Shown: piece after piece, positions 1,291 to 55,810 of the stretch | How the letters are laid out: each line of letters opens with the position of its first letter | Numbering within the stretch: position 1 is the stretch's first letter | Source: Ophelia neglecta | Lineage: Eukaryota | DNA: 64,000 nt | Assembly (NCBI GenBank): GCA_965285935.1 | Contig: OZ260666.1 | Coordinates: forward strand, 21,452,001-21,516,000 | Direction: 5' to 3' | The notes under the pieces: model-generated | What the model was told of the DNA's origin: nothing | Seen by the model: only the letters and a program-made list of their open reading frames with translations | Database searches by the model: none | Made by a program: the position numbers and the translations under genes

Positions 1291-1659
1291 GGTTTCAGTC
1301 TTTACGTACCATATTGACTTAAATAATTGACTTAAATTAATTAAGGGGAGCTAAAAGCAATTATTCTCGACCAGATTTTATTATGGACACAGCGTTTATT
1401 ATAGACAGATTTTGTTAATCTCATTATCCAGTCCTTTATCATGGATGCGGCGCGTATTATAGCTCGGCTTTTACTACAGGCCGTTTTTGTCTCCAATTTA
1501 GCTCTACAATATGTAGCCCTCGTGGCCAATAGGTGGGGAGTTGACTCCGTATTGTGATTTTTCACATGGTTAAAGTACAACCGATGATAAAATCACATAT
1601 TGGTTCCTATTGGGAGAAAATCATAGTATTGTGAAAAAATGAACTTACTTACTATAGAT

Positions 1660-1692
1660 CAAATTAATATTTGCAGGGAAATCATAACAATG
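1660..1692 (+). promoter_or_regulatory. Putative 3' splice acceptor 13 nt upstream of the KLHL ATG (5'-UTR intron); equivalent site before every copy
   Basis: atatttgcag|ggaa-tcataac/aaATG is conserved in copies 1-4 and atatttccag|ggaaatcataacaATG in copy 5, whereas the upstream MNLL ATG is out of frame or absent in copies 2 and 3. Confidence 0.6.
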
Positions 1693-3775
1693 AAGGTAAC
1701 GACGACAGACTACCTGGGGTTCCATGAGAGAATGTCTAGTCTGAGGGAGATGGAGATTGGTCTGGACGGAGTTATCTGTGCCAAGGATGGAGAGGTCAGG
1801 GTCCATCTAACATACATGGCTGCCTGTAACCAGACTCTGTTCAACCGTATTGCTGGTCTCTTGAAACAGAGCAAGAAAGAATTGGCCGTCAAAACCATGT
1901 CGGGGAAAGGTTTACAGCTCATTGTAGATTATTGTTACTCTGGAGAGATCACAGTCTGTGAAGATAACTTTGAACATGTCATCGACGCTGCTCTGGGTCT
2001 GGAATTCCTGGACATAGTGGAGGAGTGTTTAAACTTTGCCTTGAATACAAATGCCAATGCAAATATTTGGTGTCACTTCCTGCGAGCCGCTTTTAAACAT
2101 CCTCGGTCAGTCCAACCAAAGGAATTTGTCCCTAATCTGATTTTGGATAATATTACTAAAGTTCCCAAGGAAGCAGTCATCAAAGGATTGGACGCTGCCT
2201 TCATCGGGGAGATTCTAGAACATGGGACGTTGTCTGAAAATAACAGGTGTTACGCAATGAATGTCTTTCTTGAGGTAATATTAGCAGAAGCAGGAGAAAT
2301 TACTAATTGCAAAAATACTTTCGTTGCAATGCGAGATATGGCGCAACCAGGAGATAAACTCATCATACCAAAAGAAGCCTCTGGTACATCCTTCATAGCA
2401 TTGACAGAGTTGTCACTGGGAATAAATTTTGTTGCCCTTATTAAAGCTTGTGTAGAAGGTTTGGTGAAAACGTCCCCTACAGCTCAAGGTACTTCACTCG
2501 CCTTGAAGTGGACCAAGCAGTATGCTGGGTCTGAGTCTGTGAGCTATCTCAACCAGTTATGTCTACATGCCTTCAAGGATCTGTCTGGACATTTCTGAGG
2601 ATGAACTCTGCCTGATGCTGGACAGTGACTACTTAGGACCAATGTTAGAATTCGATATTTTCAAAAATGTGGTGAAATGGATCAAGCACAATAATACAAG
2701 TGCTAAAACAAACTGTAGAGTAGTCGGTCTGATAAGATTTGGTCTGATGACAAAAGAAGAGATGGACGAAATAATTGTCGAGTATGATTTACCAGGTTGT
2801 GAGGCTATCTATGTATCTGCCATGAGGTGCCATTTAAGGCCTATTGACCAAAGAATAGCTATGGGAAACATAAACAAACTACGACGGAAGCATTCAACCA
2901 TTTACATCATGGGGGGACAGGGTTCAGGAAATAATTATAACAAGAATGTTATCACATCACAGGTTACCCATTTACAACACAACTCGTCCCTGTCTCCTTT
3001 TACCTCGTTGTGTGAAACCCCGTTTGCCCTTAGTAACAGTGCCTGTGCTGAGATGAATGGATTTATTTTTATTTCTGGTGGTGCAAACGAATCAGGTTGT
3101 GTTGCAACGATGTTCCGGCTGGACCCTCGTTCCTACTCATGGCTGGAACTAGAAAAGATGCAACAGAAACGACGCTCCCACACTTTGACATCAATAAACA
3201 CTTCGCTTGTCGCTGTTGGAGGAAAGGACAGAGAAATTAATACTGTGTGTGTAGAGATGTATGATATGACTACAATGAAATGGACATTAGGGGCTCCACT
3301 GCCCGGAGCACGTTGTCGGCATGCTGCGTCTTATGAAGACGGAGTTCTGTACATCAGTGGAGGTAGTCTGTCTAAGACACTGTATAGCTACCATGACAAC
3401 GTTTGGGTTGAAAAGTCTCCAATGTTGCAAGTACGTCAGAGCCATGCCATGACTAGTGTGGTTGGTATGCTGATAGTTGCTGGTGGAGCTGGGTTCGTGG
3501 ATGGTCAATGGAATGATGTGATGTCAACAGAGTGCTATGATATAATACAAGATCAGTGGACGGAACTCTCGTCTCCTAAGTTTGCTTGCGGTGTGGGTTG
3601 CTCAGTCAGGATTAATAACTGGTTTTATTTCCTCGGTGGATGCAGTTATAACGACAAAGTCTGGCTGGACTGTATACAAAGATATAATATTGAGGCCAAT
3701 GAATGGGAAATGTGTGAGAACAGGCTACCACACAGAATGTGTTGTATGGTCGCAGCAAGTATTAATAATAGTTGA
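1690..3775 (+). pseudogene. BTB-BACK-Kelch (KLHL-like) gene copy 1, frameshifted near 2581-2588
   Basis: ORFs 1639-2598 and 2567-3775 together are colinear with the intact paralogues. This copy reads gatctgtctggacatt where copies 2, 4 and 5 read atctgtctctggacatt, i.e. a 2-nt (ct) loss. Could be a real lesion or an assembly error. Confidence 0.85.
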
Positions 3776-8109: not shown

Positions 8110-9310
8110 CCTCAGTCCTGGGGCCTCTCAGCCCAGGGGTCTCTCAGTCCTGGGGTCTCTCAGCCCTGGGGACTCTCCGCCCTGGGGGCTCTCAGCCCTG
8201 TGGTCTCTCGGCCCTGGGGACTCTCAGCCCTGGGGTCTCTTAGCCCTGGGATCTCTCAGCCCTGGGGTCTCTCAGTCCTGGGGTCCCTCAGTCCTGGGAT
8301 CTCTCAGCCTTGGGGTCTCTCAGTCCTGGGGTCTCTCAGTCCTGGGGGCTCTCAGCCCTGGGGTCTCTCAGCCCTGGGGTCTCTTAGCCCTGGGATCTCT
8401 CAGCCCTGGGGTCTCTCAGTCCTGGGGGCTCTCAGCCCTGGGGACTCTCAGCCCTGGGGTCTCTTAGCCCTGGGATCTCTCAGCCCTGGGATCTCTCAGC
8501 CCTGGGGCCTCTCAGCCCTGGAATCTCTCAGCCCTGGGGTCTCTCAGCCCTGGGGTCTCTCAGCCCTGGGGACTCTCCGCCCTGGGGGCTCTCAGCCCTG
8601 GGGACTCTCCGCCCTGGGGGCTCTCAGCCCTGTGGTCTCTCGGCCCTGGGGTCTCTCAGCCCTGGGGTCTCTCAGCCCTGGGGTCTCTCAGCCCTGGGAT
8701 CTCTTAGCACTGGGGTCTCTCAGCCCTGGGGTCTCTCAGCCCTGGGGTCTCTCAGCCCTGGGGTCTCTCAGCCCTGGGATCTGTTAGCACTGGGGTCTCT
8801 CAGGCCTGTGGTCTCTTAGCCCTGGGGGCTCTCAGCCCTGTGGTGTCTCGGCCCTGTGGTCTCTCGGCCCTGGGGTCCTTCAGCCCTGGGGTCTCTTAGT
8901 CCTGGGGTCTGTCAGCCCTGGGGTCTCTTAGCCCTGGGGTCTCTTACCCCTGGGGTCTCTCAGCCCTGGGGTCCCTCAGCCCTGGGGTCTCTCAGTCCTG
9001 GGGTCTCTCAGCCCTGGGGTCTCTCAGCCCTGTTGTCCTTCAGTCCTAAAATCTCTCAGTCCCGGGGGCTCTCAATCCCGGGGGCTCTCAGGCCTGTGGG
9101 TGCTGATCCCGGGGCTATCAATCCTGGGGGTCTGTCATTCCGTGGAGGACTTAGTCTGGTGGCCCTTCTGCCCAAATGTACTTGGTCTTGGGGTCTCTTA
9201 GTCCTGGGGAATTCCTAGTCCGCAGCGGGGGGGGGGGGGGGGGGAGACTCTTAGGTCGTGGACTATCCTCGGTGTCTCCTAGTCCGGGAGCATCTCAGTC
9301 AGGGGAGCTT
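8110..9310 (+). repeat. 16-bp minisatellite (ctctcagccctggggt); homologous arrays 23885-24810 and 35752-36890
   Basis: Directly visible tandem units. Confidence 0.95.
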
Positions 9311-10053: not shown

Positions 10054-11548
10054 GGTACATTATATGTGAAATTGGAGCGGGGGGGGGGGGGGGGGCGGCA
10101 AATTAGGGGAGGTGGGTGGTGGACGGAGTGGAGAGGGGGGACGGCAAATCAGGACGGGGGTCAATTTTTAAGGCTGTCCAAAATCACCAGGAATCGTCAG
10201 TCACACAAAATCAGGGCTCAATCATCTAACGCTTACTAAGATTATACTTGGAAATACGACCTTATAACGTATAGGCCATGATTTGACTTCAAGTGGCAGT
10301 CAACCACGTTCACATTTCATTCGGGGGCGTTCCGAGTCCACGGGAGGCAGGGGGGGGGGGGGGTATATCAGGCAGGGAAGAGAGGAAGAGGCGATGGAGC
10401 TAGGGCTTCCGGTATTAGGTCCTTCCACATAGACTTGTATGTTAACGTTTTGACTACATGATGTTATTCCAGTAGATGCACAGAAAACACAGGCCTCAAA
10501 TCACCTGCCATGTTAATACGACCCCCACCCATCCGCTGTCGCTCACCCAATACCGGGTCATGCTGTGATAATCTGGGCAACTGGTTATCAAGTATTTTAT
10601 TTACCTGTTGTATTATTTTCGTTTTAAATGTACCCGTAATATTAGGTTATTTTTGCTGAACTGTTCTTATCAGTTATCGGTGGCTATCGATCACTTAATA
10701 GTCGAACGTAAAGTACAACGTACATCACGTAACCGACGGCTATATTACAGCCCCTTTTGGCATGTTTACACGCTTAAGCGTTTAACTTGTTGTACACTTC
10801 TAGCCTAGCGAGTTTATGAGTAATGGAAATTCCCTATTTCTCGTTTTTCTGAAGTGTGTCCCATGTTGCTGCCTAGCAACGATAGACATACAGTTATAAG
10901 TACATCGTATGTAACAACTATCTGATTATACATCACGACATACCACGGATAACACATCAAACCCATTTGGCAGGATAGTTTCTTTCTCTGATATAATTTC
11001 GCCATTCTTTACCTCGTTTAAGGGAATTGTCAATTAATCTGGTAAGTGCCATTTTACTAGCTTTATTACCACACTGAGTGTTAAATCTACCATTATACAC
11101 TGTAGATCTATATTATATGTCTCAATGTAGATCTATTTTATATGTCTCAATGTTATAGCGGGACACCGCATCAACCCAGGTGATATTCACCTGTTGTAAG
11201 TCTAGCTGACATATTAACTTTTCAGGAAGCTATACACATTGATATGAATTGACAATAATGAATAAGTTACCGTTAAATGACGACTTTCAAACCTATAAAT
11301 CACCGATCAAATGGACTAATATGCTCAAGGCACTATGTTATTTAGGTGGATGGTTACGTTGGTAGACGCTGGGTCAGCGAATGATCAGTTCTTAAGTTTT
11401 CAGTTAGTATTACAGATTTTCATATAGTCGGTCTTTGCAATTCATTTTCTTTATACCTAGCAAATAAGTCGACATTTTCAAATGGCAACGGCAAGTATAT
11501 ATATTGTATGCGTCAACAGGTCCAAGATAAATACATGAAGCTGTCACT

Positions 11549-12460
11549 ACCGGGGTCTCTCAGTCCCCGGGGGTCTCTCTCGGGGGTTCTGAGTCCCCGG
11601 GGGTCTCTCAGTCCCCGGGGGTCTCTCAATCCGGGGGTCTCTCAGTCCCCGGGGTCTCTCAGTCCCCGGGGGTCTCTCAGTCCCGGGGGTCTCTCACTCC
11701 GGGGGTCTCTTAGTCCCCGGGGGTCTCTCAATCCGGGGGTCTCTCAGTCCCCGGCGTCTCTCAGTCCCCGGGGGTCTCTCAGTCCCCGGGGGTCTCTCAC
11801 TCCGGGGCCTCTCAGTCCCCGGGGTCTCTCAGTCCCCGAGGGTCTCTCAGTCCCCGGGCGTCTCTTAGTCCCCGGGGGTCTCTCAGTCCCCGGGGGTCTC
11901 TCACTCCGGGGGTCTCTCAGTCCCCGGGGGTCTCTCACTCCGGGGGTCTCTCAGTCCCCGGGGGTCTCTCAGTCCCCGGGGGTTCTGAGTCCCCGGGGGT
12001 CTCTCAGTCCCCGTGGGTCTCTAACTCCGGGGGTCTCTCAGTCCCCGGGGTCTCTAACTCCGGGGGTCTCTCAGTCCCCGGGGGTCTCTCAGTCCCCGGG
12101 GGTCTCTCAGTCCCCGGGGTCTCTCAGTCCCCGGGGGTCTCTCAGTCCCAGGGGGTCTCTTAGTCCCCGGGGTGTCTCAGTCCCCGGGGGTCTCTCAGTC
12201 CCCGGGGGTCTCTCAGTCCCCGGGGTCTCTCAGTCCCCGGGGGTCTCTCAGTCCCCGGGGGTCTCTCAGTCCCCGGGGGTGTCTCAGTCCCCGGGGGTCT
12301 CTCAGTCCCCTGGGGTCTCTCAGTCCCCGGGGGTCCCTCAGTCCCCGGGGTCTCTCAGTCTCCGCTGGTTCTGAGTCCGGGGGTCAATCAGTCTTGGGTT
12401 TTCAGTTCGGGGGCCCTCAGTCCGGGTGTCTCTCAGTCCATGGGTCCTTAGTCCGGGGGA
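11549..12460 (+). repeat. 17-18-bp minisatellite (ctctcagtccccgggggt), expanded only in unit 1
   Basis: Directly visible tandem units; no equivalent array at the matching position in units 2 and 3. Confidence 0.95.
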
Positions 12461-14762
12461 AGGGGAGGGGGAGGGGGAGGGTTGGATGGCTGACGCTTTT
12501 CAGCTTCTGAATCCGGAGCTCTTAGTACAGGAAGTGAGGGGGGAGGGGCATGACTCTCGATGCATGGAAGATCCTTGAAATCCAACCCACTTCCCCAATA
12601 AGTATTTACAATTAAGGTTTAAACTACAAAGTATGTGAGCGCGGGATTCCTTTTTAAAAAGTAATTTCTCCAGCGTCTTGTGCTCACCATTCACCGGAAG
12701 GGGGGTCTATATTCCAATGATTGTTTATCAAGGTCACAATGAGGGATATATGGAACAAGATATAGAACAAGACATATTACCTGAAAGGTAGGTAGGGCGG
12801 AGGTAGGGAAGGGGGGGGGGTAGGGGTTGCCGTGCATTAATATACACCATCTGCCATTGACCTGGTTGTATGAGCTTGCATGGTAGCATCATCACTAGAT
12901 TTTAGGATCATCTTAATATAATAAAAATTCAATACCACGTGACTGACCCCCATGCGTTCATATATATACCTCTTTTTCTTCTGAATACATTGGCCATACA
13001 CAGAGAAAACGATATGTAGACTTTAGTTGCTAGCCTATTTAAATCAGAGGAATCAATGGCTTTTATACTAATTCTTTTCTAAGACTCAAGTCTAAGACAA
13101 GAGCTTCCCATACTTCCTCATCTCTATGTTTTTCTACTTAACATTGCAATAAACGCAGCAGTTATAATCCTTGGTTGAAAGGACGATATAATAATATAAA
13201 TTCTCCTATAAGGATGGCGTACGTGCATGCTATCAGCTTAATGTTACCGCTAAAGGTCGGATTCCGAGCAGGACCTCGGCTTTTCCACGAGTCTAGGTTT
13301 TCACTGTCTCGAGATTGGGGAAAACGAAAGCACATGCATTCAAACAAGAGGCGGAAACAGGGAGGGAAGATGTTAGATGGGGTGATGAGGGTCCGGCGGG
13401 ATCGGTCGGGTTGTTATGTGGAGTAAACTATTTTCCCTATCAGGCCTCATAAGGAGGTAAACTTCTGGGCCATTCTGTCTCCATTTGCCCCCCCCCCCCC
13501 CCCGCAACAAATGCCTATATGCTTACAATGACTTTTGCGAGGAAATTGATACAACCACGTCGGGAAATTTTTATCGCTCATTGTTTGCTCCTCCCCCCTC
13601 CCAGCCCCCACCACCTTCCTGGCGTTAAATAATAAAAGTTCCCGAGAACCTCAGTCCGGGGTCCCTCAGTCCGGCCTCAGTCCGGGGTCCCTCAGTCCGG
13701 GAGTCTCTCAGTCCGGTGCTCTCTGAGTCCGGAGGTCTCAGTTCGGGGGTCCCTCAGTCCGGAGGTCTCTCAGTCCAAGAGGTCCCTCAGTCCGGGCTCC
13801 TTCATTCCGGTGGTCCCTCAGTCCGGGGGTCCCTCAGTCCGGGGGTCCCTCAATCCGGGGGTCTCTCAGTCCGGGCGCCTTCAGTCCGGTGGTTCCTCAG
13901 TTCAGCAGGGGTCTCTCAGTCCGGGCGCCTTCATTTCGGTGGTCCCTTAGTTCAGGAGTCTCTCAGTCCGGGTGTCCATCAGTCCGGGGAAAACTCATTT
14001 GGGGCTTTCTCATTCCAAGGAATTGAATAACGGGGGTTTTAAGTCCGGCGTCCCTCAGTCCGAGGGTTCTAATTCACAGTATTTTTAGTCCTTGGGTTTT
14101 CAGTCCGAGGCTCCCTCAGTCAGAGGGTTCTCAGTCCAGGAACTTCTAGTCTGGAGGTTTTCAGAACAGGGGCTCTCAGTCCGAGGGTTCTCAGTCAGGG
14201 GACTCTCAGCCCGGAGGTGTTTGTCCCGGGGGTCCCTCAGTCCGGGCTTCACTCAATTTGGGTTCTCAGTCCGGGGATTCTCAGCCTGGTAATTTTCAGT
14301 CTGCGCGTCCGTAAGTTCGGGTTTCTCCAATCGGGGGGTTCCACATCCTGGGGGTCCCTCAGTCACCAGGGTTCAGTCTTTACGTACCATATGGACTAAA
14401 ATAATCGGCAGGCGTTTATCAATTAAGGGGAGCTAAAAGCGTCTATTTTAGACCAGATTTCATTTTGGACACAGCGTTTATTATAGACCGATTTTGATAA
14501 TCTCACAATCCAGTCAACTATTATTGATCCGGCGCGTGTTATAGTTCGGCTTTTACTAAAGGCCATATTTGTCTCCATTTCACAATATGTAGATCTCGTG
14601 GCCTATAGGTGGGGAGTTGACTCCAAACAGTAATTTTTCATATGATAAAAGTACACCCGGTGATAGAATCAGGGTTTTGGTTCCTATTGGCGGCAAAGCA
14701 AAGTGATGTGAAATTATGAACTTATTATAGATCAAATTAATATTTGCAGGGAATTCATAACA

Positions 14763-16850
14763 ATGAAGGTTACGACGACAGACTACCTGGGGTTCCACGA
14801 GAGAATGTCTCGTCTGAGGGAGATGGAGATCGGTCTGGACGGAGTTATCTGTGCCAAGGATGGAGAAGTCAGGGTCCATCTACCATACATGGCCGCCTGT
14901 AACCAGACTCTGTTCAACCGTATTACTGGTCTCTTGAAACAGGACAAGAAAGAATTGGCTGTCAAAACCATGTCGGGTAAAGGTTTACAGCTCATTGTAG
15001 ATTATTGTTACTCTGGTGAGATTACGATCTCGGAAGATAACTTTGAGCACATCATTGACGCTGCTCTGGGTCTGGAATTCCTGGACATAGTGGAGGAGTG
15101 TTTAAACTTTGCCTTGAATACAGATGCTAATGCAAATATTTGGTGTCACTTCCTGCGAGCTGCTTTTAAACATCCTCGGTTAGTCCAACCAAAGGAATTT
15201 GTTCCTAATCTGATTTTGGATAATATTACTAAAGTTCCCAAGGAAGCAATCATTAAAGGATTGGACGCTGCCTTCATCGGGGAGATTCTAGAACATGGGA
15301 CATTGTCCGACAATAACAGGTGTTACGCAATGAATGTCTTTCTTGAGGTTATATTAGCAGAGACAGGTGAAATTACAAATTACAAAAATACTTTCGTTGC
15401 AATGCGAGATATTGCGCAACCAGGAGATGAACTGATCGTACCAAAAGAAGCCACTGGGACATCCATCATAGCATTGACAGAGTTGTCACTGGGAATAAAT
15501 TTTGTTGGCCTTATTAAAGCTTGTGTAGAAGGTTTGGTGAAAACATCCCCTACAGCTCAAGGTACTTCACTCGCCTTGAAGTGGGCCAAGCAGTATGCTG
15601 CGTCTGAGTCTGTGACGTATCTCAACCAGTTATGTCTACATGCCTTCAATAATCTGTCTCTGGACATTTCTGAGGATGAACTCTGCCTGATGCTGGACAG
15701 TGACTATTTAGGAACAATATCAGAAATGGATATTTTCAAAACTGTGGTGAAATGGATCAAACAAAACAACACAAGTGCTGAAACAAACCGTAGAATAGTC
15801 GGTCTGATCAGATTTGGGCTGATGACGAAAGAAGAAATGGAAGAAGTAATATTAGAGCACACTTTACAAGGTTGTGGGGATATATATGTATCTGCCATGA
15901 AGTACCATTTAAGGCCAAATGACCCACGACTAGCTGAGGGAAACATTAACAAACTACGACTGAAGAATTCAACCATTTACATCATGGGGGGGAAAGATTC
16001 ATTTAATAATTATATAAACAAAGTTGTGGCGTCAGAGGTTACACATTTAAAAGGCAACGTATCCCTGTCACATTTTACTGACGTCTGTGAAACCCCGTTT
16101 GCCATTTACAAAAGTGCTTGTGCTACTATGGATGGACTTATATTTGTTTCTGGTGGTGAAAACGAATCTGGCTGTGTTGCAACGATGTTCCGGCTTGACT
16201 CGCGTTCAAACGCATGGTTGGAACTACAAGACATGCGACAGATACGACATTCCCACACTTTGACAACTGTTGATGATTCCCTTTTCGCTGTTGGTGGATC
16301 GGTCGACAAAACCCATTTAGTCTGTGTGGAGAAATATGACGTGCGAAAAAACAAATGGTCACCTATGGCGCCACTGCCACGAGCACGAAGTCAGCATGCT
16401 GCGTCTTATGAAGACGGAGTTCTGTACATCAGTGGAGGTAGTCATTCTAAGACACTGTATAGCTACCATGACAGCGTTTGGATTGAAAAGTCTCCAATGT
16501 TACAAGTACGTCAGACACATGCCATGACTAGTGTGGTGGGTATGCTGATAGTTTCTAGTGGAGCTGTGTTCGTGGATGGTCAATGGAATGATGTGATGTC
16601 AACAGAGTGCTATGATATAATACAAGATCAATGGACGGAACTCTCGCCTCCTAAGTTTGCTTGCGGTTTGGGTTGCTCAGTCAGGATTAATAACTGGTTT
16701 TATATCATCGGGGGTTTTAGTCAAAATGACAAAGTCAGGCTGGATTGTATACAAAGATATAACATCGAGGCCAATGAATGGGAAATGTGTGAGAACAGGC
16801 TACCACACAAAATGTGTTTTATGGTCGCAGCATGTATTAATAATAGTTGA
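14763..16850 (+). CDS. BTB-BACK-Kelch (KLHL-like) protein copy 2, 695 aa, intronless CDS
   Basis: BTB motifs (VHLPYMAAC..LF; LQLIVDYCYSGEI; IDAALGLEF..VEEC), BACK motifs (LCLMLDSDYL..E.DIFK.VVKWI; IRFGLM) and six Kelch repeats (GG..Y/F..W). Confidence 0.95.
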   Translation: MKVTTTDYLGFHERMSRLREMEIGLDGVICAKDGEVRVHLPYMAACNQTLFNRITGLLKQDKKELAVKTMSGKGLQLIVDYCYSGEITISEDNFEHIIDAALGLEFLDIVEECLNFALNTDANANIWCHFLRAAFKHPRLVQPKEFVPNLILDNITKVPKEAIIKGLDAAFIGEILEHGTLSDNNRCYAMNVFLEVILAETGEITNYKNTFVAMRDIAQPGDELIVPKEATGTSIIALTELSLGINFVGLIKACVEGLVKTSPTAQGTSLALKWAKQYAASESVTYLNQLCLHAFNNLSLDISEDELCLMLDSDYLGTISEMDIFKTVVKWIKQNNTSAETNRRIVGLIRFGLMTKEEMEEVILEHTLQGCGDIYVSAMKYHLRPNDPRLAEGNINKLRLKNSTIYIMGGKDSFNNYINKVVASEVTHLKGNVSLSHFTDVCETPFAIYKSACATMDGLIFVSGGENESGCVATMFRLDSRSNAWLELQDMRQIRHSHTLTTVDDSLFAVGGSVDKTHLVCVEKYDVRKNKWSPMAPLPRARSQHAASYEDGVLYISGGSHSKTLYSYHDSVWIEKSPMLQVRQTHAMTSVVGMLIVSSGAVFVDGQWNDVMSTECYDIIQDQWTELSPPKFACGLGCSVRINNWFYIIGGFSQNDKVRLDCIQRYNIEANEWEMCENRLPHKMCFMVAACINNS

Positions 16851-17544: not shown

Positions 17545-18535
17545 TCCGTCACTTACTTGAGTACAGTATGCGTTTTGCGCCAATCATTTTCGGAAAAATG
17601 GGGGGGATATGCATTCGGCCTCGAGGTTGTCCTGTAGTCCCCACGCCGCCCCACATCCCCCCGCCTCGCCAACGCCCCGCCGCCCCCGCCGACCCCGCCA
17701 CCCACCGGATTAATTTGTTTTTGCTGTAATTAAGCAAAGCCTGAACGCCCTGAAACGGGCTGGGGAATTTTTCGGGAATACTGTTCATAAACTACTACTG
17801 CCGAAGTTACGAACTGTATTTCACCAGTTACACGTTTTAGAAAAAAAAGTATGATAGATATGGCGCCGAAATTGGCAGGGAAGAAGCGCCTATGCCTGGC
17901 CATTCACTGATTTACCCTGGGGTGAAATAGGAAATAGTTAATGACTTGCCAACGGATTTAGAAAATGAAAGTCAAGCTTCTTTAATACGGCAGTAAGGCC
18001 TATATTTACTCTGGGAAGGGTTTGTCATATTTGACATTGACCCACATTTTAAGGTCAAATTGATAAAATCATAATTTCAGACTTTATTTTAGCAGTAGTA
18101 CCTAGAGGTACATTGGACACCTATAAAGAACAAAATTATTCGCATTTTATCGCGTTCTCTTGTTTACTTTGGGGTTCATTTTCACGGTCCATTTACCAAA
18201 GTGATGGTATTCAGCCTTTATGTCCGCAGTTAGAGTCTAGAAGTATATTGAGAACTTATAGGAAGCGACATTTTTCGAATATTATCGAGTTCTCAGATTT
18301 GAACTTAGGTTTCATTAACAATGTCAAATTACAGACAATGATGATTACAGCCTTTATTTTAGCAGTTAGAGTATAAAAGTATGTTGGGAACCTATAGGAA
18401 ACACACTTTCGCATCTTCGCGAGTTCTCCGCTTTGATCTTGGCGTCCATTTCCAAGGTCAAATTACCGGAATGATGATTTCCGCCATTTTCTTAGCAGCA
18501 AAAGTCTAGCACTACATTGAGAACCTATACATTAA
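17545..18535. repeat. Interspersed-repeat-like block with GC-rich head and ~135-bp degenerate internal tandem units; also ~30845-31830 and ~43525-44435
   Basis: (tta/cc)gcagt..tctag..gaacctata and tgacc..aaggtcaa motifs recur near 18088, 18226, 18359 and 18492. Confidence 0.55.
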
Positions 18536-23793: not shown

Positions 23794-25999
23794 TAAAAAG
23801 ATGTGCCTGTCTGCAGGTGGATATTGTTCAAAGGGCTAAAGCTCAGCTCTAGGGGCTCGCAGTCCTAAGGGCACAGATAACTGAGGACTCTCCGCCCTGG
23901 GGTCTCTCAGCCCTGGTGTCACTCAGCCCGGGGTCTCTCAGTCCTGGGGTCTCTCTGCCCTGGGGTCCCTCAGCCCGGGGGTCTCTCAGCCCGGGGGTCT
24001 CTCAGCCCTGGGGTCTCTCAGCCCTGGGGTCTCTCAGCCCTGGGGTCTCTCTGCCCTGGGGTCCCTCAGCCAGGGGGTCTCTCAGCCCGGGGGTCTCTCA
24101 GCCCTGGGGTCTCTCAGCCCTGAGGTCTCTCTGCCCTGGGGTCCCTTAGCCAGGGGGTCTCTCAGCCCGGGGGTCTCTCAGCCCTGGGGTCTCTCAGCCC
24201 TGAGGTCTCTCTGCCCTGGGGTCCCTTAGCCAGGGGGTCTCTCAGCCCGGGGGTCTCTCAGCCCTGGGGTCTCTCAGCCCGGGGGTCTCTCAGCCTTGGG
24301 GTCTCTCAGCCCTTGGGTCTCTCAGCCCTGAGGTCTCTTTGCCCTGGGGTCCCTCGGCCCTGGGGTCTCTCAATCCTGGGGTCTCTCAGCCCTGGGATCT
24401 CTCAGCCCTAGGGTCTCTCAGCCCTGGGGTCTCTCAGTCCTGGGGTCTCTCAGTCCTGGGGTCTCTCAGCCCTGGGGTCTCTCAGTCCTGGGGTCTCTAA
24501 ATCCTGGGGTCTCTCAGTCCTGGGGTGTCTAAGCCCTGGGGTCTCTCAGCCCGGGGGTCTCTCAGCCCTGGGGTCTCTCAGTCCTGGGGTCTCTAAATCC
24601 TGGGGTCTCTCAGTCCTGGGGTGTCTAAGCCCTGGGGTCTCTCAGCCCGGGGGTCTCTCAGCCCTGGGGTCTCTCAGTCCTGGGGTCTCTAAATCCTGGG
24701 GTCTCTCAGTCCTGGGGTGTCTAAGCCCTGGGGTCTCTCAGCCCTGGGGTCTCTCAGTCCCGGGGACTCTCAGGCCAGTTGGTGCTGAGCCCGGAGCTAT
24801 CAGTCCTGGGGGTCTGTCATTCCGTGGAGTCTGGTGGCCCACAAAATCAGTGCTCAATCATATAGCGCTAACTAAGATTGTACTGCAACTTCTACCCCCT
24901 CCCTTTTTCCCCTCCTCCTCCCTACCCCCGCCATACCTACCTTACAGGTAATATTATTGGAAATACGAAATTATAACGTATAGGCCATGATTTGACTTCG
25001 AGAAGCGTCAACCACGTTCACATTTCATTCCGGGGCGTGGCAGGGGGGGGGGGGGGTTATCTCAGGCAGGGAAAAGTGGGAGGGGAGATGGAGCTAGGGC
25101 TTCCGGTATTTGGTTCTTTCACATAGACTTGGATGTTAACGTTTTGACTACATGATGTTATTCCAGAGGATGCACAGAAATAACAGGGCTCGAATCACCT
25201 GCCATGTTAATACGACCCCCACCCATCCGCTGTCGCTCACCCAATACCGGGTCATGCAGTGATAATCTGGGCTACTGGGTATCAAGTATTTTACTTACCT
25301 GTTGTACTATTTTCGTTTTAAATGTACCCGTAATATTAGGTTAATTTTGCAGAACTGTTCATATCAGTAATCGGTGGCTATCGCTCACTTAATAGTCGAA
25401 CATAAAGTCCAGGGTACGTTAAAATCCCTGAGTTAAAACTGTTTAGCACGTAACAGACGGCTATAGCACAGCAGCATTTGCCATGTTTACATGCTTAAAC
25501 GTTTAACTAGTCTTGCTTAGCGAGTTTATGAGTAATGGAAATTCCCTAGTTCTCGTTTCTCAGAAGTGTGTCACATGTTACTGCCTAGTAACGATAGACA
25601 CACAGGTATAAAGTACATCGTCTCTTACAACTGTATGATTATAGATCACGATATACCAAGGATAACACATCAAACCTATTTGGGAGGATAGTTTGTTTCT
25701 CCCATTCCTTACCTCGTTTAAGGGAATTGTCAATTAATCTGGTAAGTGCCTTTTTACTAGCTATATTACCACACTATATTATCTATATTATCTATATTAT
25801 ATGTCTCAATGTTATAGCGGGACACGTCATCAGCCCAGGTGATAGTCACCTGTTTTAGGTCTAGCTGACATATTACTTTAGGATGTCTGACGCTTTTAGT
25901 CTCGGGGGTTCAGATCCTGGAGGTTTTAGTAGAGGACGTTGGAAGGGGGAGGGGGGCATAACTCACGGTGCATGGAAGATCCAACATCCAGCCCACCAA

Positions 26000-28056: not shown

Positions 28057-30141
28057 ATGAAGGTAACGACGACAGACTACCTGGAGTTCCACGAGAGAAT
28101 GTCTCGTCTGAGGGAGATGGAGATTGGTCTGGACGGAGTTATCTGTGCCAAGGATGGAGAAGTCAGGGTCCATCTACCATACATGGCTGCCTGTAACCAG
28201 ACTCTGTTCAACCGTATTACTGGTCTCTTGAAACAGAACAAGAAAGAACTGAACGTCAAAACCATGTCGGGTAAAGGTTTACAACTCATTGTAGATTATT
28301 GTTACTCTGGTGAGATCACAGTGTGTGAAGATAACTTTGAACACGTCATTGATGCCGCTCTGGGTCTGGAGTTCCTGGAGATAGTGCAGGAGTGTTTAAA
28401 CTTTGCCTTGAATACAGATGCCAATGCAAACATTTGGTGTCACTTCCTTCGAGCAGCTTTTAAACATCCTCGGTCTGTTCAACCAAAGGAATATGTCCCT
28501 AATTTGATTTTAGATAATATTACTAAAGTTCCCAAGGAAGCAATCATCAAAGGATTGGACGCCGCCTTCATCGGGGAGATTCTAGAACATGGGACATTGT
28601 CTGCAAATAACAGGTGTTACGCAATGAATGTCTTTCTTGAGGTAATATTAGCAGTAACCGTTGAAATTACAAATTACAAAAATACTTTCTGTCGCATGCG
28701 AGATATTGCGCAACCAGGAAATGAACTGATCATACCAAAAGAAGCCACTGGTACATCCATCATAACATTGACAGAGTTGTCACTGGAAATAAATTTTGTT
28801 GGCCTTATTAAAGCTTGTGTAGAAGGTTTGGTGAAAACATCCCCTACAGCTCAAGGTACTTCACTCGCCTTGAAGTGGACCAAGCAGTATGCTGGGTCTG
28901 AGTCTGTGACGTATCTCAACCAGTTATGTCTACATGCCTTCAAGGATCTGTCCTTGGACATTTCTGAGGATGAACTCTGCCTGATGCTGGACAGTGACTA
29001 CTTAGGACCAATGTCAGAATATGATATTTTCAAAAATGTGGTGAAATGGATCAAACACAATAATACAAGTGCTGAAACTGACTGTAGATTAGTCGGTCTG
29101 GTAAGATTTGGTCTGATGACGAAAGAAGAAATGGACGAAGTAATTGTCGAGTATGATTTACCAGGTTGTGAATCCATCTATGTATCTGCCATGAGATACC
29201 ATTTAAGGCCTGTTGACCAAAGAATAGCTATGGGAAACATAAACAAACTACGACGGAAGCGTTCAACCATTTTCATCATTGGGGGACTGGATTCAGGAAA
29301 TAATTATAACAAGAATGTTATCACGTCACAGGTTACCCATTTACAACACAACTCGTCCCTGTCTCATTTTACCTCGGTGTGTGAAACCCCGTTTGCCCTT
29401 ATGAACAGTGCATGTGCTGAGATGAATGGATTTATTTTTATTTCTGGCGGTGAAAACGAATCTGGTTGTGTTGAAACGATGTTCCGGCTGGACCCTCGTT
29501 CCCACTCATGGCTGGAACTAGAAAAGATGCAACAGAAACGGCGCTTACACACTTTGACATCAATAAACACTTCGCTTGTCGCTGTTGGAGGATGGAACCG
29601 AGAAATTGATATTGTGTGTGTAGAGATGTATGATATGACTACAATGAAATGGACACTAGGGGCCCCACTGTTGAGAGCACGTTGTCAGCATGCTGCGTCT
29701 TATGAAGACGGAGTTCTGTACATCAGTGGAGGTAGTCATTCTAAGACACTGTATAGCTACCATGACAACGTTTGGGTTGAAAAGTCTCCAATGTTGCAAG
29801 TACGTCAGATCCATGCCATGACTAGTGTGGAGGGTATGCTGATAGTTGCTGGTGGAGCTGTGTTCGTGGATGATAAATGGAATGACGTGATGTCAACAGA
29901 GTGTTATGATATAATACAAGATCAGTGGACGGAACTCTCGTCTCCTAAGTTTGCTTGCGTTATGGGTTGCTCAGTCAGGATTAATAACTGGTTTTATATC
30001 ATCGGTGGATGCAGTTATAACGACAATGCCAGGCTAGACTGTATACAAAGATATAATATTGAGGCCAATGAATGGGAAATGTGTGAGAACAGGCTACCAC
30101 ACAAAATTTGTTCTATGGTCGCATGTATGAATAATAATTGA
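28057..30141 (+). CDS. BTB-BACK-Kelch (KLHL-like) protein copy 3, 694 aa
   Basis: Uninterrupted ORF colinear with copy 2, same motifs. Confidence 0.95.
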   Translation: MKVTTTDYLEFHERMSRLREMEIGLDGVICAKDGEVRVHLPYMAACNQTLFNRITGLLKQNKKELNVKTMSGKGLQLIVDYCYSGEITVCEDNFEHVIDAALGLEFLEIVQECLNFALNTDANANIWCHFLRAAFKHPRSVQPKEYVPNLILDNITKVPKEAIIKGLDAAFIGEILEHGTLSANNRCYAMNVFLEVILAVTVEITNYKNTFCRMRDIAQPGNELIIPKEATGTSIITLTELSLEINFVGLIKACVEGLVKTSPTAQGTSLALKWTKQYAGSESVTYLNQLCLHAFKDLSLDISEDELCLMLDSDYLGPMSEYDIFKNVVKWIKHNNTSAETDCRLVGLVRFGLMTKEEMDEVIVEYDLPGCESIYVSAMRYHLRPVDQRIAMGNINKLRRKRSTIFIIGGLDSGNNYNKNVITSQVTHLQHNSSLSHFTSVCETPFALMNSACAEMNGFIFISGGENESGCVETMFRLDPRSHSWLELEKMQQKRRLHTLTSINTSLVAVGGWNREIDIVCVEMYDMTTMKWTLGAPLLRARCQHAASYEDGVLYISGGSHSKTLYSYHDNVWVEKSPMLQVRQIHAMTSVEGMLIVAGGAVFVDDKWNDVMSTECYDIIQDQWTELSSPKFACVMGCSVRINNWFYIIGGCSYNDNARLDCIQRYNIEANEWEMCENRLPHKICSMVACMNNN

Positions 30142-39100: not shown

Positions 39101-40737
39101 TGTTACGACTTAAGGTCGGATTCCGGGCAGGACCTCAGCTTACGTGTTATCACTTGCAAGAGTCTAGGTTTTCACTGTCTCGGGATTCGGGAAAACGAAA
39201 GCACAAGCATTCAAGCAAGAGGCGAAAAGGGGGAGAGAAGATATTAGTTGAGGGGGTCAGGTTCCGGCCGGGTCGGCCGGGTTGCTATGTGGAGTAAACT
39301 ATTTTCCCTATTAGGCCTCATATGGCGGTAAACTTCTGGGCCATTCTGTCTCCGTTTGCCCCCGCCCGTACCCCCTCCCCCCGCCACACATGCCTATATG
39401 TTAATCATGATCATGACCACCCCCTTAGGGGCCGACCATTTGATAATGTAGGGGGGGGGGGGGGAGAAAAATTTAGAAAAAAAAAGTTTGTTGGCCAGCT
39501 CTGGCCACAAAAATGGCTGTCACAGTACTTGAGAAAAAAAAATGTTTGTCTTGCACATTGTGAACAAATCATAAATGATCTTCCAGAAGAAAAAATGTTT
39601 GCAGGCGAATTATGAGGGGAAAAAAAGATTGTTTTGAAGGAGGCAAAAAAAAAAGTTAGGAAAAAAAAAATTTCTCACCCCCCCCCCCCGGTGGTCCCAC
39701 AGTCCGGGGGTCTCTCAGTCCGAAGGTCTATCAGTCCGGGGGTATCTCATTTCGGGTTTTCTCAGCCCCGGGATCGCTCAGACAAAAAAAGCCAGTATTA
39801 TCATATACGAATATTTCAATATAAATTAATTTGACAATAATTCTGTATCTCGAAGACTATTGTCAATAGGTCCCCCATTGTAGCGATTTGTAGCAAGGGT
39901 CCTCAATCTGGGGGTCGCTCCTTCAGAGAATACCGAGACCGAAGGTCCCTCAGACTGAGGTCTCTCAGTCCGGAGCTTGGAATCATCGGATTGCTTAGTC
40001 AGGCTGTTCCTAGTATGGGGACTCTCGGTCCAGAGGTCTAGGGGTCCCTCAGTCAAGGGTTTATCAGTCTGGGGGTTCTCAGGTCAAGGGACCCATCCAA
40101 GGGCTTTCTGTCCGGGATCGGTCCGAACTGTGAGTCGAAGTGCACTTTGAGTCGGGGCGTGTGAGGGGGGGGGGGGCTTTGTGTCCATGTGGACTTTGAG
40201 TCCAGGGCGCGGGGGGAGGGGGTTATTTTCCGTCAGGGAGAAAGAGAGGAGCTGCAGCCTCAGAGTCTCTAAATCTGAGGGTTTTAAATGCCCAGGATTC
40301 TCGGGTCATGGTGGTCTCGTTGGAGGCTCTCAGTTGGAGGGAGGGGGGGGGGGGGTCGGTGTCTTTTGGCCTAAGGGTTTATCAGTAACGTGTGGGTTCG
40401 TCTGTCTCTTGAGGACGGGGAGCTTTGAGTCCAGGGGACAAGGAGACCGGTGGTGGTGGTGGTGATGGTGGTTGGTGGGATGGGGGATGGGGGTGGGGGG
40501 GGGGGGATGGTGGCTGGGGTGGGGGTTTCTCCAATTTAGCTCCACAATATGTAGATATCGTGACCGATTTCGTTCCAATAGGTGGCGAGTTGACTGCGAA
40601 CTGTAATTTTTCACATGGTAAAGTACACCCGATGAGATAATCACATATTGGTTCCTATTGGGAGAGGATCATAGTAATGGGAAGAAATGAACTTACTAAC
40701 AACAGATCAAATTAATATTTGCAGGGAAATCATAACA

Positions 40738-42825
40738 ATGAAGGTAACGACGACAGACTACCTGGGGTTCCATGAGAGAATGTCTCATCTTAGGGAGATG
40801 GAGATCGGTCTGGACGGAGTTATCTGTGCCAAGGATGGAGAGTTCAGGGTCCATCTGCCATACATGGCTGCCTGTAACCAGACTCTGTTCAAGCGTATTA
40901 CTGGTCTCTTGAAACAGAACAAGAAGGAACTGGCCGTCAAAACCATGTCGGGTAAAGGTTTACAGCTCATTGTAGATTATTGTTACTCTGGAGAGATCAC
41001 AGTCTGTGAAGATAACTTTGAACACGTCATCGACGCTGCTCTGGGTCTGGAATTCCTGGACATAGTGCAAGAGTGTTTAAACTTTGCCTTGAATACAAAT
41101 GCCAATCCAAATATTTGGTGTCACTTCCTGCGAGCAGCTTTTAAACATCCTCGGTCAGTCCAACCAAAGGAATTTGTTCCTAATCTGATTTTGGATAATA
41201 TTACTAAAGTTCCCAAGGAAGCCATCATCAAAGGATTGGATGCTGCCTTCATCGGGGAGATTCTAGAACATGGGACATTGTCTGACAATAACAGATGTTA
41301 CGCAATGAATGTCTTTCTTGAGGTAATATTAACAGAGACAGGTGAAATTACAAATTACAATAATTCTTTCGTTGCAATGCGAGATATTGCGCAACCAGGA
41401 GATAAACTGATCATACCAAAAGAAGCCACTGGTACATCCATCATAACATTGACAGAGTTGTCACTGGAAATAAATTTTGTTGGCCTTATTAAAGCTTGTG
41501 TAGAAGGTTTGGTGAAAACGTCCCCTACATCTGACGTTACTTCACACGCATTGAAGTGGGCCAAGCAGTATGCTGGGTCTGAGTCTGTGAGCTATCTCAA
41601 CCAGTTATGTCTACATGCCTTCAAGGATCTGTCTCTGGACATTTCTGAGGATGAACTCTGCCTGATGCTGGACAGTGACTACTTAGGACCAATGTTAGAA
41701 TTCGATATTTTCAAAAATGTGGTGAAATGGATCAAACACAACAATACAAGTGCTGAAACAAACCATAGAGTAGTCGGTCTGATAAGATTTGGTCTGTTAA
41801 CAAAAGAAGAGATGGACGAAGTAATTGTCGAGTATGATTTACCAGGTTGTGAGGCTATCTATGTATCTGCCATGAGATACCATTTAAGGCCTATTGACCA
41901 AAGAATAGCTATGGGAAACATAAACAAACTACGACGGAAGCAGTCAACCATTTTCATCATTGGGGGACTGGATTCAGGATCTAATTATAACAAGAATGTT
42001 ATCACATCACAGGTTACCCATTTACAAGACAATACGTCCCTGTCTCCTTTAACCTCGGTGTCTGAAACCCCGTTTGCCCTTAAGAATAGTGCATGTGCTG
42101 AGATGAATGGATTTATTTTTATTTCTGGTGGTGAAAACGAATCAGGTTGTGTTGCAACGATGTTCCGGCTGGACCCTCGTTCGCATTCATGGCTGGAACT
42201 AGAAAAGATGCAACAGAAACGACGCTCTCACACATTGACATCAATAAACACTTCGCTTGTCGCTGTTGGAGGAAGGAAAGGAGAAATTAGTACTGTGTGT
42301 GTAGAGATATATGATATAACTTCAATGAAATGGACACTAGCGGCGCCAATGCCACAAGCACAAGCTCAGCATGCTGCGTCTTATGAAGACGGAGTCCTGT
42401 ACATCAGTGGAGGTAGTCAGTCTAAGACACTGTATATCTACCATGACAACGTTTGGATTGAAAAGTCTCCAATGTTACAAGTACGTCAGGGCCATGCCAT
42501 GACTAGTGTAGTTGGAATGCTGATAGTTGTTGGTGGAGCTGTGTTCCTGGATGGTAAATGTAAAGATGTGATGTCAACAGAGTGCTATGATATAATCCAA
42601 GATCAGTGGACGGAACTCTCGCCTCCTAAGTTTGCTTGCGGTTTGGGTTGCTCAGTCAGGATTAATAACTGGTTTTATATCATCGGTGGATGCAGTTATA
42701 ACGACAATGCCAGGCTGGACTGTATACAAAGATATAACATTGAGGCCGATGAGTGGGAAATGTGTGAGAACAGGCTACCACACAAAATGTGTTGTATGGT
42801 TGCAGCATGTATTAATAATAGTTGA
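40738..42825 (+). CDS. BTB-BACK-Kelch (KLHL-like) protein copy 4, 695 aa from MKVTT
   Basis: ORF 40687-42825; start placed at the MKVTT ATG shared by all five copies. Confidence 0.95.
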   Translation: MKVTTTDYLGFHERMSHLREMEIGLDGVICAKDGEFRVHLPYMAACNQTLFKRITGLLKQNKKELAVKTMSGKGLQLIVDYCYSGEITVCEDNFEHVIDAALGLEFLDIVQECLNFALNTNANPNIWCHFLRAAFKHPRSVQPKEFVPNLILDNITKVPKEAIIKGLDAAFIGEILEHGTLSDNNRCYAMNVFLEVILTETGEITNYNNSFVAMRDIAQPGDKLIIPKEATGTSIITLTELSLEINFVGLIKACVEGLVKTSPTSDVTSHALKWAKQYAGSESVSYLNQLCLHAFKDLSLDISEDELCLMLDSDYLGPMLEFDIFKNVVKWIKHNNTSAETNHRVVGLIRFGLLTKEEMDEVIVEYDLPGCEAIYVSAMRYHLRPIDQRIAMGNINKLRRKQSTIFIIGGLDSGSNYNKNVITSQVTHLQDNTSLSPLTSVSETPFALKNSACAEMNGFIFISGGENESGCVATMFRLDPRSHSWLELEKMQQKRRSHTLTSINTSLVAVGGRKGEISTVCVEIYDITSMKWTLAAPMPQAQAQHAASYEDGVLYISGGSQSKTLYIYHDNVWIEKSPMLQVRQGHAMTSVVGMLIVVGGAVFLDGKCKDVMSTECYDIIQDQWTELSPPKFACGLGCSVRINNWFYIIGGCSYNDNARLDCIQRYNIEADEWEMCENRLPHKMCCMVAACINNS

Positions 42826-53000: not shown

Positions 53001-53728
53001 TTGAACGAAAAATTCTAGTTGGTTGGTCGCCTGTTCTGTCGGACTACTATAGACAAAGCCTCAGGAGTCTGTCCGATGTGTTTTCAGTCCGAGGACTCAC
53101 AGTGCAACAGCCTCTGAATCTATGCCCAGGGTTTCTCGGGTCATGGTACTCTCTGTTTGGAGACGCTCAGTCAGGGGGGGGGGGGTGCTCAAAATCCGGG
53201 TGTCTTTTTTTGTCTTGGGGTTCATCAGTAATGCGTGGGTTCGTCAGTCTGGAGGGCTCTTGAACAATGGAGCTTAGACAAGGGCGCAGGGGGGAGGGGG
53301 AGGAGGAGGTGGAGGGGGGGGGGGCTTCAGCGTTCAGTTCTTACATACCGTATGCACTAAAATAATCGGCGAGCGTTTAGAAATAACGGGGAGCTAATAG
53401 AACCGGCGCTTATTTTAGGCCGGATTTCATTATAGACAAGGTGTTTATTATAGACAGATTTTGTTAAGCTCACAATCCAGTCAATTATTATTGATCCGGC
53501 GCGTATTATAGCTCGGCTTTTATTAAAGCCCGTATTTATCTCCAATTTAGCTCTACAATATGTAGCTCTCGTGGCCTATAGGTGGGGAGTTGACTTCGAA
53601 CTGTAATTTTTACATGGTAAAAGTACACCCGGTGATAGAATCAAATATTGGTTCCTATTGGCGGCAAAACAATTGTGATGAACTTACTCAATGTAGATCA
53701 AATTAATATTTCCAGGGAAATCATAACA

Positions 53729-55810
53729 ATGAAGGTTACAACAACAGACTACCTGGGGTTCCACGAGAGAATGTCTCGTCTGAGGGAGATGGAGATCGGT
53801 CTGGACGGAGTTATCTGTGCCAAGGATGGAGAGGTCAGGGTCCATCTACCATACATGGCTGCCTGTAACCAGACTCTGTTTAACCGTATTACTGGTCTCT
53901 TGAAACAGAACAAGAAAGACCTGGCCGTCAAAACCATGTCGGGTAAAGGTTTACAGCTCATTGTAGATTATTGTTACTCTGGAGAGATCACAGTCTGTGA
54001 AGATAACTTTGAACACGTCATCGACGCTGCTCTGGGTCTGGAGTTCCTGGACATAGTGCAAGAGTGTTTAAACTTTGCCTTGAATACAGATGCTAATGGA
54101 AATATTTGGTGTCACTTCCTGCGAGCTGCTTTTAAACATGCTCGGTTAGTTCAACCGAAGGAATTTGTCCCTAATCTGATTTTGGATAATATTACTAAAG
54201 TTCCCAAGGAAGCAATCATCAAAGGATTGGACGCCGCCTTCATCGGGGAGATTCTAGAACATGGGACATTGTCTGAAAATAACAGGTGTTGCGCAATGAA
54301 TGTCTTTCTTGAGGTAATATTAGCAGAGACACGGGAAATTACAAATTACAAAAATACTTTCGTTGCAATGCGAGATATTGCGCAACCAGGAGATAAACTG
54401 ATCATACCAAAAGAAGCTACTGGAACATCCATCATAGCATTGACAGAGTTGTCACTGGAAATAAATTTTGTTGGCCTTATTAAAGCTTGTGTAGAAGGTT
54501 TGGTGAAAACATCCCCTACAGCTCAAGGTACTTCACTCGCCTTGAAGTGGGCCAAGCAGTATGCTGGGTCTCAGTCTATGAGCTATCTCAACCAGTTATG
54601 TCTACATGCCTTCAAGGATCTGTCTCTGGACATTTCTGAGGATGAACTCTGCCTGATGCTGGACAGTGACTACTTAGGACCAATGTCAGAATATGATATT
54701 TTCAAAAAAGTGATGAATTGGATAGAACACAACAATACAAGTGCTGACACAAACTGTAGAGTAGTCGGTCTTATACGATTTGGTCTGATGACGAAAGAAG
54801 AAATGGAAGAAGTTATTGGCGATTACGATTTTCCTGGTTGTGAGGCTATTTATTTTTCTGCCATGAGGTACCATGTAAGGGCTTATGAGCAGCCGTTAAC
54901 TAGGGGAAACATTAACAAACTACGGCTGAAGAATTCAAAGATTTACATCATGGGCGGAAAGGATTTAACAAATAACTATAACAAGAAAGTTATCACGTCC
55001 GAGGTTACCCAAGGCAACGCATCTTTGTCTCCTTTTACTGATGTGTGTGAATCCCCGTTCGTCGTTTACAAAACTGCTTGTGCTGAGATGAATGGATTTA
55101 TATTTGTTTCTGGTGGGCAAAACGAATCTGGCTGTGTTGCAGCGATGTTTCGGCTTGACTCTCGTTCAAACGCATGGCTGGAACTACAAGACATGCGACA
55201 GAAACGACGTTCCCACACTTTAACATCAATTGATGCCTCCCTTGTCGCTGTTGGAGGTTGGGACGCTGAATGTCAAATTGCCTGTGTGGAGACGTATGAT
55301 GTTAGAGAACAGAAATGGACACTAGTGGCGCCATTGCCAAGAGCACGATCTCAGCATGCTGCGTCTTATGAAGACGGAGTTCTGTACATCAGTGGAGGTA
55401 GTCAGTCCAAGACACTGTATAGCTTCTGTGACAATGTTTGGAATGAAAAGTCTCCAATGTTGCAAGTACGTCAGAGCCATGCCATGACTAGTGTGGTTGG
55501 TATGCTGATAGTGGTTGGTGGAATAGTGTCATTGGAGAGTAAATGGAAAGATGTCATGTCAGCAGAGTGTTATGATATAATACAAGATCAGTGGACGGAA
55601 CTATCGCCTCCTAAGTTTGCTTGCGATTTGGGTTGCTCTGTCAGGATTAATAACTGGTTTTATATCATCGGAGGTTATAGTCAAAACGACAAAACCTGGT
55701 TTGACTGTATACAAAGATATGACGTCGAGGCCGATGAGTGGGAAATGTGTAATTTGAAACTTCCGCATAAAATGAGTAGAATGGTCACAGCATATATTTA
55801 TAATGTTTGA
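53729..55810 (+). CDS. BTB-BACK-Kelch (KLHL-like) protein copy 5, 693 aa from MKVTT, most divergent 3' end
   Basis: ORF 53648-55810. C-terminus (CNLKLPHKMSRMVTAYIYNV) and 3' flank diverge from copies 1-4. Confidence 0.95.
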   Translation: MKVTTTDYLGFHERMSRLREMEIGLDGVICAKDGEVRVHLPYMAACNQTLFNRITGLLKQNKKDLAVKTMSGKGLQLIVDYCYSGEITVCEDNFEHVIDAALGLEFLDIVQECLNFALNTDANGNIWCHFLRAAFKHARLVQPKEFVPNLILDNITKVPKEAIIKGLDAAFIGEILEHGTLSENNRCCAMNVFLEVILAETREITNYKNTFVAMRDIAQPGDKLIIPKEATGTSIIALTELSLEINFVGLIKACVEGLVKTSPTAQGTSLALKWAKQYAGSQSMSYLNQLCLHAFKDLSLDISEDELCLMLDSDYLGPMSEYDIFKKVMNWIEHNNTSADTNCRVVGLIRFGLMTKEEMEEVIGDYDFPGCEAIYFSAMRYHVRAYEQPLTRGNINKLRLKNSKIYIMGGKDLTNNYNKKVITSEVTQGNASLSPFTDVCESPFVVYKTACAEMNGFIFVSGGQNESGCVAAMFRLDSRSNAWLELQDMRQKRRSHTLTSIDASLVAVGGWDAECQIACVETYDVREQKWTLVAPLPRARSQHAASYEDGVLYISGGSQSKTLYSFCDNVWNEKSPMLQVRQSHAMTSVVGMLIVVGGIVSLESKWKDVMSAECYDIIQDQWTELSPPKFACDLGCSVRINNWFYIIGGYSQNDKTWFDCIQRYDVEADEWEMCNLKLPHKMSRMVTAYIYNV

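Follow-up and report, generated by a model that had tools for sequence, protein, structure and literature searches.

In a 64,000-nucleotide window of the Ophelia neglecta genome (contig OZ260666.1, positions 21,452,001 to 21,516,000 of the forward strand), we found a tandem family of Kelch-like proteins with an extended arm in which BTB helices 5-6, the 3-box and the first BACK helices occur a second time, as an old copy. The evidence supports the order BTB, truncated BACK, partial BTB (helices 5-6, perhaps 4), 3-box, BACK and six Kelch blades. The explanation that we favour, if only slightly, is that the second copy is a likely spacer in proteins that likely form long-armed dimers, engage varied targets through their propellers and lack the usual docking to CUL3.

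Five copies of the gene lie on the same strand of the window at a spacing of ~13 kb (Table 1). Pfam places the BTB first and the Kelch part last in these copies. BTB1 is recognized as PF00651 above cut-off in 5/5 window copies and 7/7 distant members, and the BACK before the propeller (profile probability 98.8%) as PF07707 above cut-off in five of the seven distant members and below it in two. The Kelch part has six GG/SG motifs, reported by Pfam as four to six Kelch_1 stretches across the window copies and distant members. As the first-pass annotation had stated, the extra segment occurs in all five window copies; four are intact, because copy 1 is frameshifted by a 2-base deletion that falls in its second BACK. 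This deletion (2585-2586) leaves copy 1 as two frames, one of 319 aa for the BTB and arm and one of 402 aa for the BACK and Kelch part, and several further genomic copies are also broken between arm and propeller. GC-rich 16-18 bp satellite arrays lie between and upstream of the gene copies, within the duplicated unit, and could promote unequal crossover. A 288-aa ORF at 11508-12374 was dismissed as a gene, being a translation of satellite DNA. Mutually related tandem repeats of 134-136 bp are found downstream of copies 2 and 4 (18169-18529 and 44141-44434).

Table 1. Features of the window, with the parts of the protein encoded by copy 2.
Feature	Position	Strand	Description or basis
Window copy 1, split by 2-base deletion near 2585	1639..3775	+	
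Window copy 2 (P0001), extended BTB-BACK-Kelch protein	14763..16850	+	Single-exon ORF, 695 aa
Copy 2: BTB domain 1, aa 1-118, sole complete BTB	14763..15116	+	Pfam PF00651 E 3e-8; profile probability 98.9%
Copy 2: helix 3 / phi-x-E region, aa 52-60	14916..14942	+	Alignment to 4hxi; tallies; KLHL3 numbering as given in PMC3616122
Copy 2: first 3-box and truncated, strongly diverged BACK, aa 119-199	15117..15359	+	Profile and model; conserved within family
Copy 2: helix and extended linker, aa 204-229, probably a copy of BTB helix 4 and next strand	15372..15449	+	Model pattern, self-alignment; no canonical sequence match
Copy 2: second copy of BTB helices 5-6, aa 230-262	15450..15548	+	Profile comparisons
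Copy 2: second 3-box and complete BACK, aa 263-382	15549..15908	+	Pfam PF07707 E 7.7e-10; KLHL3 115-277 match E 5e-10; fold searches
Copy 2: six Kelch repeats, aa 404-692	15972..16838	+	Pfam, motif counts; R+1/R+2 of blades highly variable between copies
Window copy 3, intact	28057..30141	+	Architecture as copy 2
Window copy 4, intact	40687..42825	+	Architecture as copy 2
Window copy 5, intact	53678..55810	+	Architecture as copy 2
GC-rich satellite arrays	1-909, 8111-9101, 11552-12393, 13649-13989, 23888-24773, 27155-27376, 35754-36612, 52470-52649		

The segment singled out by the first-pass annotation (15430-15840) corresponds to aa 223-360 of the ORF at 14763-16850, and the peptides quoted from it are located there. 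In this 695-aa ORF, BTB helix 6 is separated from the 'E..F' motif of the BACK by 207 residues. Measured from the cysteine of helix 6 to the glutamate of the BACK, the distance is 203-222 aa in 8/8 diverged members compared with 70-75 aa in 26/26 canonical BTB-BACK proteins, an excess length in the arm of ~136 aa. Pfam recognized one BTB (aa 17-118) and, where a second BACK had been proposed, one BACK (aa 274-362), and made no significant match in the stretch that separates them; no single BACK therefore spans the region. On aa 118-300 of six members, Pfam returned sub-threshold noise only (for example, IL22). The suggested Pfam and HMMER check thus succeeded for the BTB and BACK on either side of the insert and failed for the insert pieces alone, HMMER searches against solved structures with aa 200-298, 119-203 or 200-262 giving no BTB or BACK match.

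We then compared a family profile built from the eight diverged members with a canonical BTB-BACK profile built from P0003 and 25 of 30 BACK loci of the same genome (left out were two loci without a long frame, two without an in-frame BTB and one near-duplicate). Sliding windows fell on the canonical profile at an offset of 0 to +2 over aa 10-200, and a second time at +137 to +142 over aa 230-391, with four weak windows off both diagonals; both the marker distance and these two diagonals depart from one BTB followed directly by one 3-box/BACK. Taken alone, aa 200-262 matched BTB helices 5-6 with a probability of 84% and a score of 35.0, compared with 0/100 shuffles reaching that score (maximum 18.9), 11.2 on reversal and 0/46 CUL3 helical windows (maximum 18.1), in keeping with the earlier claim that the segment after the first BACK repeats the C-terminal helix/3-box pattern of the BTB. 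Self-alignment, one of the checks proposed, placed unit 1 on unit 2 over 101 columns in the register first described, with a score of 30.0 (0/100 shuffles, maximum 21.3), and the profile of aa 200-395 gave an unbroken alignment to KLHL3 115-277 (E 5e-10). The copy matches the canonical profile from positions 89-119 onward only. The first BACK (aa 119-199) was weak alone, scoring 18.4 against a shuffle maximum of 17.9, a score reached by 1/45 CUL3 windows, and we identify it by its position and by three successive windows that keep the register of the BTB. The excess length, the two diagonals and the aa 200-262 match uphold the architecture BTB-BACK-(partial BTB)-BACK-Kelch6, and Pfam and self-alignment both speak against a single BACK spanning the region without self-similarity.

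An AlphaFold model of aa 1-395 (pLDDT 88.3) has a helix, an extended stretch and seven helices at 72-199, a pattern repeated at 204-335, so that eight extra helices are predicted in the arm. Modelled alone, aa 200-395 reached a pLDDT of 87.5. Foldseek returned no match for this second model at E <= 0.001; the best E was 0.013, and ranks 1-13 among the matches listed were all KLHL11, KBTBD2 or KLHL22. The top VIA row for the same model was KLHL11 145-334 (Z 9.1, rmsd 7.3, 164 aligned), with an unrelated helical domain tying on Z. The fold evidence, modest alone, agrees with the sequence evidence.

The genome search returned 60 matches, among which we count ~31 distinct close copies, grouped into three clusters on contig C9. 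An open frame of at least 680 aa is present in 20 of the 25 best loci, the remaining close loci being split or stopped, and 11 of the ~31 close copies are broken or split. This distribution is that of a birth-death tandem expansion. Five distant paralogues on contigs C2 and C9 are 35-52% identical and intact, with the extra segment present, and when the insert of a distant paralogue served as the genome query, each of the 40 matches fell at a known family locus. One distant paralogue (L034:943-3294, minus strand) has a propeller that begins with ~85 additional low-complexity residues. Just upstream of another, an open frame (L032:4288-5157, minus strand) combines a W-x-C-x2-C-x10-C-x2-C motif with FG repeats, which we take to resemble a nucleoporin exon. 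Other BACK-frame clusters, unrelated to the insert, lie in the same genome (G000, C2:107.8-109.8 Mb and C9:11.5-19.0 Mb) and suggest further BTB-BACK expansions. Beyond this genome, the search for the same architecture that the first-pass annotation had recommended yielded two ENA proteins with the extra segment (P0002 and P0004). A whole-protein profile search gave 2/7997 at E <= 1e-20, one with the repeat; an insert profile search gave two matches among 1.84 billion representatives; and a single-sequence search with aa 100-380 gave 0/4550 candidates. The word-based database searches are of limited reach, and these counts do not imply absence in other taxa. Contigs from two of three sequencing runs, too short to show more, contained no joint skipping the extra segment. 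We regard a lineage-restricted, tandemly expanded Kelch-like group as the best explanation for the family.

The repeat is old, as had been supposed, being common to members 35-51% identical. In a tree of eight members and canonical proteins, units 1 and 2 formed one well-supported clade each, with matching member pairs, which places a single event before the split of all eight members. The event may have been one unequal crossover, in which a BTB-BACK cut after the 'E..F..V..W' helix would have been joined to a point near BTB helix 4. Two questions bear on what this segment is and where it came from. That it is an unrelated helical insert merely resembling BTB and BACK helices fits the empty HMMER searches with the pieces alone and the many unrelated solenoids at Z 7-9, but a score of 35 against at most 19 in all controls, the exact register on both profile diagonals and the unbroken match to KLHL3 115-277 largely refute this reading, and we consider it extremely improbable. 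On origin only, the crossover may have involved two different Kelch-like genes, the front coming from one and the back from another, a possibility to which we give appreciable weight while holding it to be the lesser one. With each other the units share 12% identity, no more than with canonical proteins (15-16%), and they are not sisters in the tree; however, that tree has long branches, weak deep support and a warning of long-branch joining, and rapid divergence after a self-duplication would look identical. With these identities, self-duplication and two-gene fusion are indistinguishable.

To describe constraint along the arm, we compared identity among the eight diverged members, which is 44% in BTB1, 41% in 3-box 1, 19% in the linker, 28% in the helix 5-6 copy and 20% in 3-box 2. 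Among 20 close intact copies, pN/pS from pairwise counts is 0.17 in BTB1, 0.21 in the first BACK, 0.60 in aa 200-262 and 0.92 in 3-box 2; it is 0.65 (0.45-0.92) for aa 200-298, where 3/99 columns are conserved among the diverged members. Since the repeat is the least conserved part, we infer a segment under loose constraint that likely acts as a spacer. The first 3-box (15132-15227) is beyond Pfam recognition, yet 11 of its 39 columns are near-invariant in the family (including W127, F146, P148 and N149), and it is a candidate surface for a new partner.

The residues that would contact CUL3 in BTB1 are changed throughout the family. Aligned to KLHL3 (4hxi), N52, R53, L58 and Q60 fall at A77, M78, M83 and E85. 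We tallied 27 members, 25 from the genome (20 of them close copies) and two from outside. The E85 position is D or E in 0/27, compared with E in 22/26 canonical proteins; the M78 position is R, K or Q in all 27, compared with hydrophobic in 25/26 canonical proteins; and N, K, S or R occupies the A77 position in all 27. The phi residue is hydrophobic in 27/27, and 26/27 have E or D at the BTB1 helix 5-6 loop residue. Thus phi is kept, whereas the phi-x-D/E motif and the small or hydrophobic helix-3 contacts are not. In the published account of KLHL3, the disease mutations A77E, M78V and E85A each severely disrupt CUL3 binding (PMC3616122), and the A77-equivalent residue is described as the key contact of vaccinia A55 (10.1101/461806). 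The matching CUL3 exon of this genome is 94-99% identical to other animals (99% gastropod, 96% annelid), so no compensating change is seen in CUL3. Judged from these substitutions, canonical CUL3 binding has probably been lost. The first-pass annotation had proposed that the extra segment lengthens the arm between CUL3 and the propeller; the longer arm stands, with its eight extra predicted helices, whereas an arm starting at CUL3 is in doubt, because the equivalents of KLHL3 A77, M78 and E85 are replaced in 27/27 members. A complex prediction of gastropod CUL3 (P0008 aa 13-385) with aa 1-390 scored 0.00 in two runs, made without alignments or control folds, and is no evidence either way.

The propellers vary in a different manner. 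Comparison of the 20 close copies places the two residues that follow the blade 'R' in each repeat (R+1/R+2) among the most variable sites; we assume these positions to face the substrate, as in KEAP1 structures. The 12 R+1/R+2 codons have a pN of 0.39 compared with 0.11 in the rest of the propeller, a value reached by 0/20000 random site sets; against the Kelch-wide pS of 0.24 the bootstrap ratio is 1.07-2.27, and the local pS is 0.37. A loop-site test gave a pN of 0.22 with a local pS of 0.32 (51/20000 random sets). These sites were picked after inspection of the data, and pairwise counts among tandem copies are non-independent. Positive selection on the binding face of the propeller is thus suggested only, because the local pS of 0.37 is near the pN, the sites are post hoc and the pairs are not independent.

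From direct observations (the repeat, its age, the conservation profile, the CUL3-site substitutions and the variability of propeller positions), the preferred reading of long-armed, CUL3-independent dimers can be set out as follows. The full first BTB, whose helices 1-3, which bear on the homodimer, are in the model and conserved, would still dimerize, and the second copy, without the N-terminal BTB elements, could not. Packing of the second 3-box and BACK on helices 5-6 of the copy would explain why these helices were retained. BTB1 and the first 3-box, conserved yet remodelled, would present a docking surface for a fixed partner, with propellers diversifying to bind changing, possibly foreign, ligands.

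A CUL3 adaptor with a modified interface is a serious contender, if a less probable one: BTB1 and 3-box 1 would still bind CUL3, and the extra segment would move the propeller outward to larger or differently placed substrates. Several observations count for it and against our preferred reading. Phi, which buries the most surface on CUL3, and the acidic helix 5-6 loop residue are retained as tallied above; BTB1 and the first 3-box are the most conserved parts, under the strong purifying selection expected of a CUL3 site; and the genome has a well-conserved CUL3 exon. The phi-x-E motif is reported as not absolutely required in A55 (10.1101/461806), and 4/26 canonical proteins are also without the E. 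In addition, the CUL3 N-terminal extension is described as adding ~100-fold affinity through the 3-box groove (10.1101/2023.02.15.528651). However, all three positions at which KLHL3 is disrupted are polar or basic in 27/27 members, and the CUL3 exon that would have to accommodate them shows no visible compensating change. The modest fold scores of unit 2 and the borderline score of the first BACK alone also weigh against the preferred reading. A second CUL3 contact, raised in the first-pass annotation, fares worse. The KLHL3-CUL3 contacts are described as four regions: helix 3 and the next loop, strand 4, helix 5 and its loop, and helix 7 of the 3-box (PMC3616122). Only two of the four (helices 5-6 and the 3-box) are kept in the copy, which is without helix 3, the phi-x-E loop and strand 4, and both LZTR1 BTB-BACK units are said possibly to bind Cul3 (PMC8154269). 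Yet the copy is the least conserved part of the arm (19-28% compared with 41-44%), with the few conserved columns and relaxed pN/pS of aa 200-298, and six diverged members have N, D or G at its helix 5-6 loop residue. In our judgement it is very unlikely that CUL3 has a second site on the partial BTB and second 3-box, or that these took over its binding from BTB1. A bolder extension of the preferred reading, which we put forward as rather unlikely, is that this lineage of ubiquitin adaptors left CUL3, doubled the arm, gave BTB1 and its 3-box over to docking a new fixed partner, and grew into a tandem repertoire of intracellular receptors with propellers that track foreign or fast-evolving ligands.

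Kelch-like adaptors are thought of as having a fixed CUL3-to-propeller geometry. With eight more predicted helices kept across members ~35% identical, the family offers a natural test of arm length and of change at the CUL3 site. Such repeats would be missed in routine annotation, since Pfam calls these proteins ordinary BTB-BACK-Kelch. The general weight of the finding is limited by the narrowness of the family, with only two outside proteins found. Should the family have left CUL3 while its propellers diversified, it would qualify as a candidate repertoire of intracellular receptors in an invertebrate that has received little study.

The best sequence and fold matches are the KLHL/KBTBD CUL3 adaptors (KLHL3, KLHL11, KBTBD2, KLHL22 and KEAP1), which share the N-terminal BTB, the 3-box/BACK and the six Kelch repeats. 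Unlike them, the family has ~136 extra residues (the cut BACK and partial BTB), replacements at the A77, M78 and E85 equivalents, and ~36 loci in one genome with variable propellers. An additional BTB-like portion may be present in long forms of KLHL33. For that Kelch-like protein there is a short BTB model of 63 positions (Pfam PF21536), which matches BTB1 only, below cut-off. A duplicated BTB-BACK region in a Kelch protein is described for LZTR1 (PMC10146909; PMC8154269), where the propeller comes first and the two BTB-BACK units are described as whole; in the present family the propeller comes last, the second BTB is represented by its C-terminal part only and the first BACK is cut short. 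Neither a Kelch-first order nor a complete second BTB was found here. Tandem BTB-BACK arms are thus already known, in another domain order, and the BTB-first version with a cut BACK and partial BTB is apparently undescribed, searches of a mostly open-access literature having listed no account of such a Kelch protein. Precedents for Cul3-independent BTB-Kelch proteins are KLHL39 (NS1-BP) and vaccinia C2, reported not to bind Cul3 owing to changed or missing contact residues (PMC4818519, PMC7614845); in the passages on them, neither an extended arm nor a diversified tandem family is described. Nematode and plant F-box and MATH-BTB proteins form unstable, expanded families of ubiquitin adaptors for which a role in pathogen defence is proposed on indirect evidence (PMC1866355). 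The Kelch family is likewise expanded; its recognition domain differs, and in it the cullin site itself looks remodelled.
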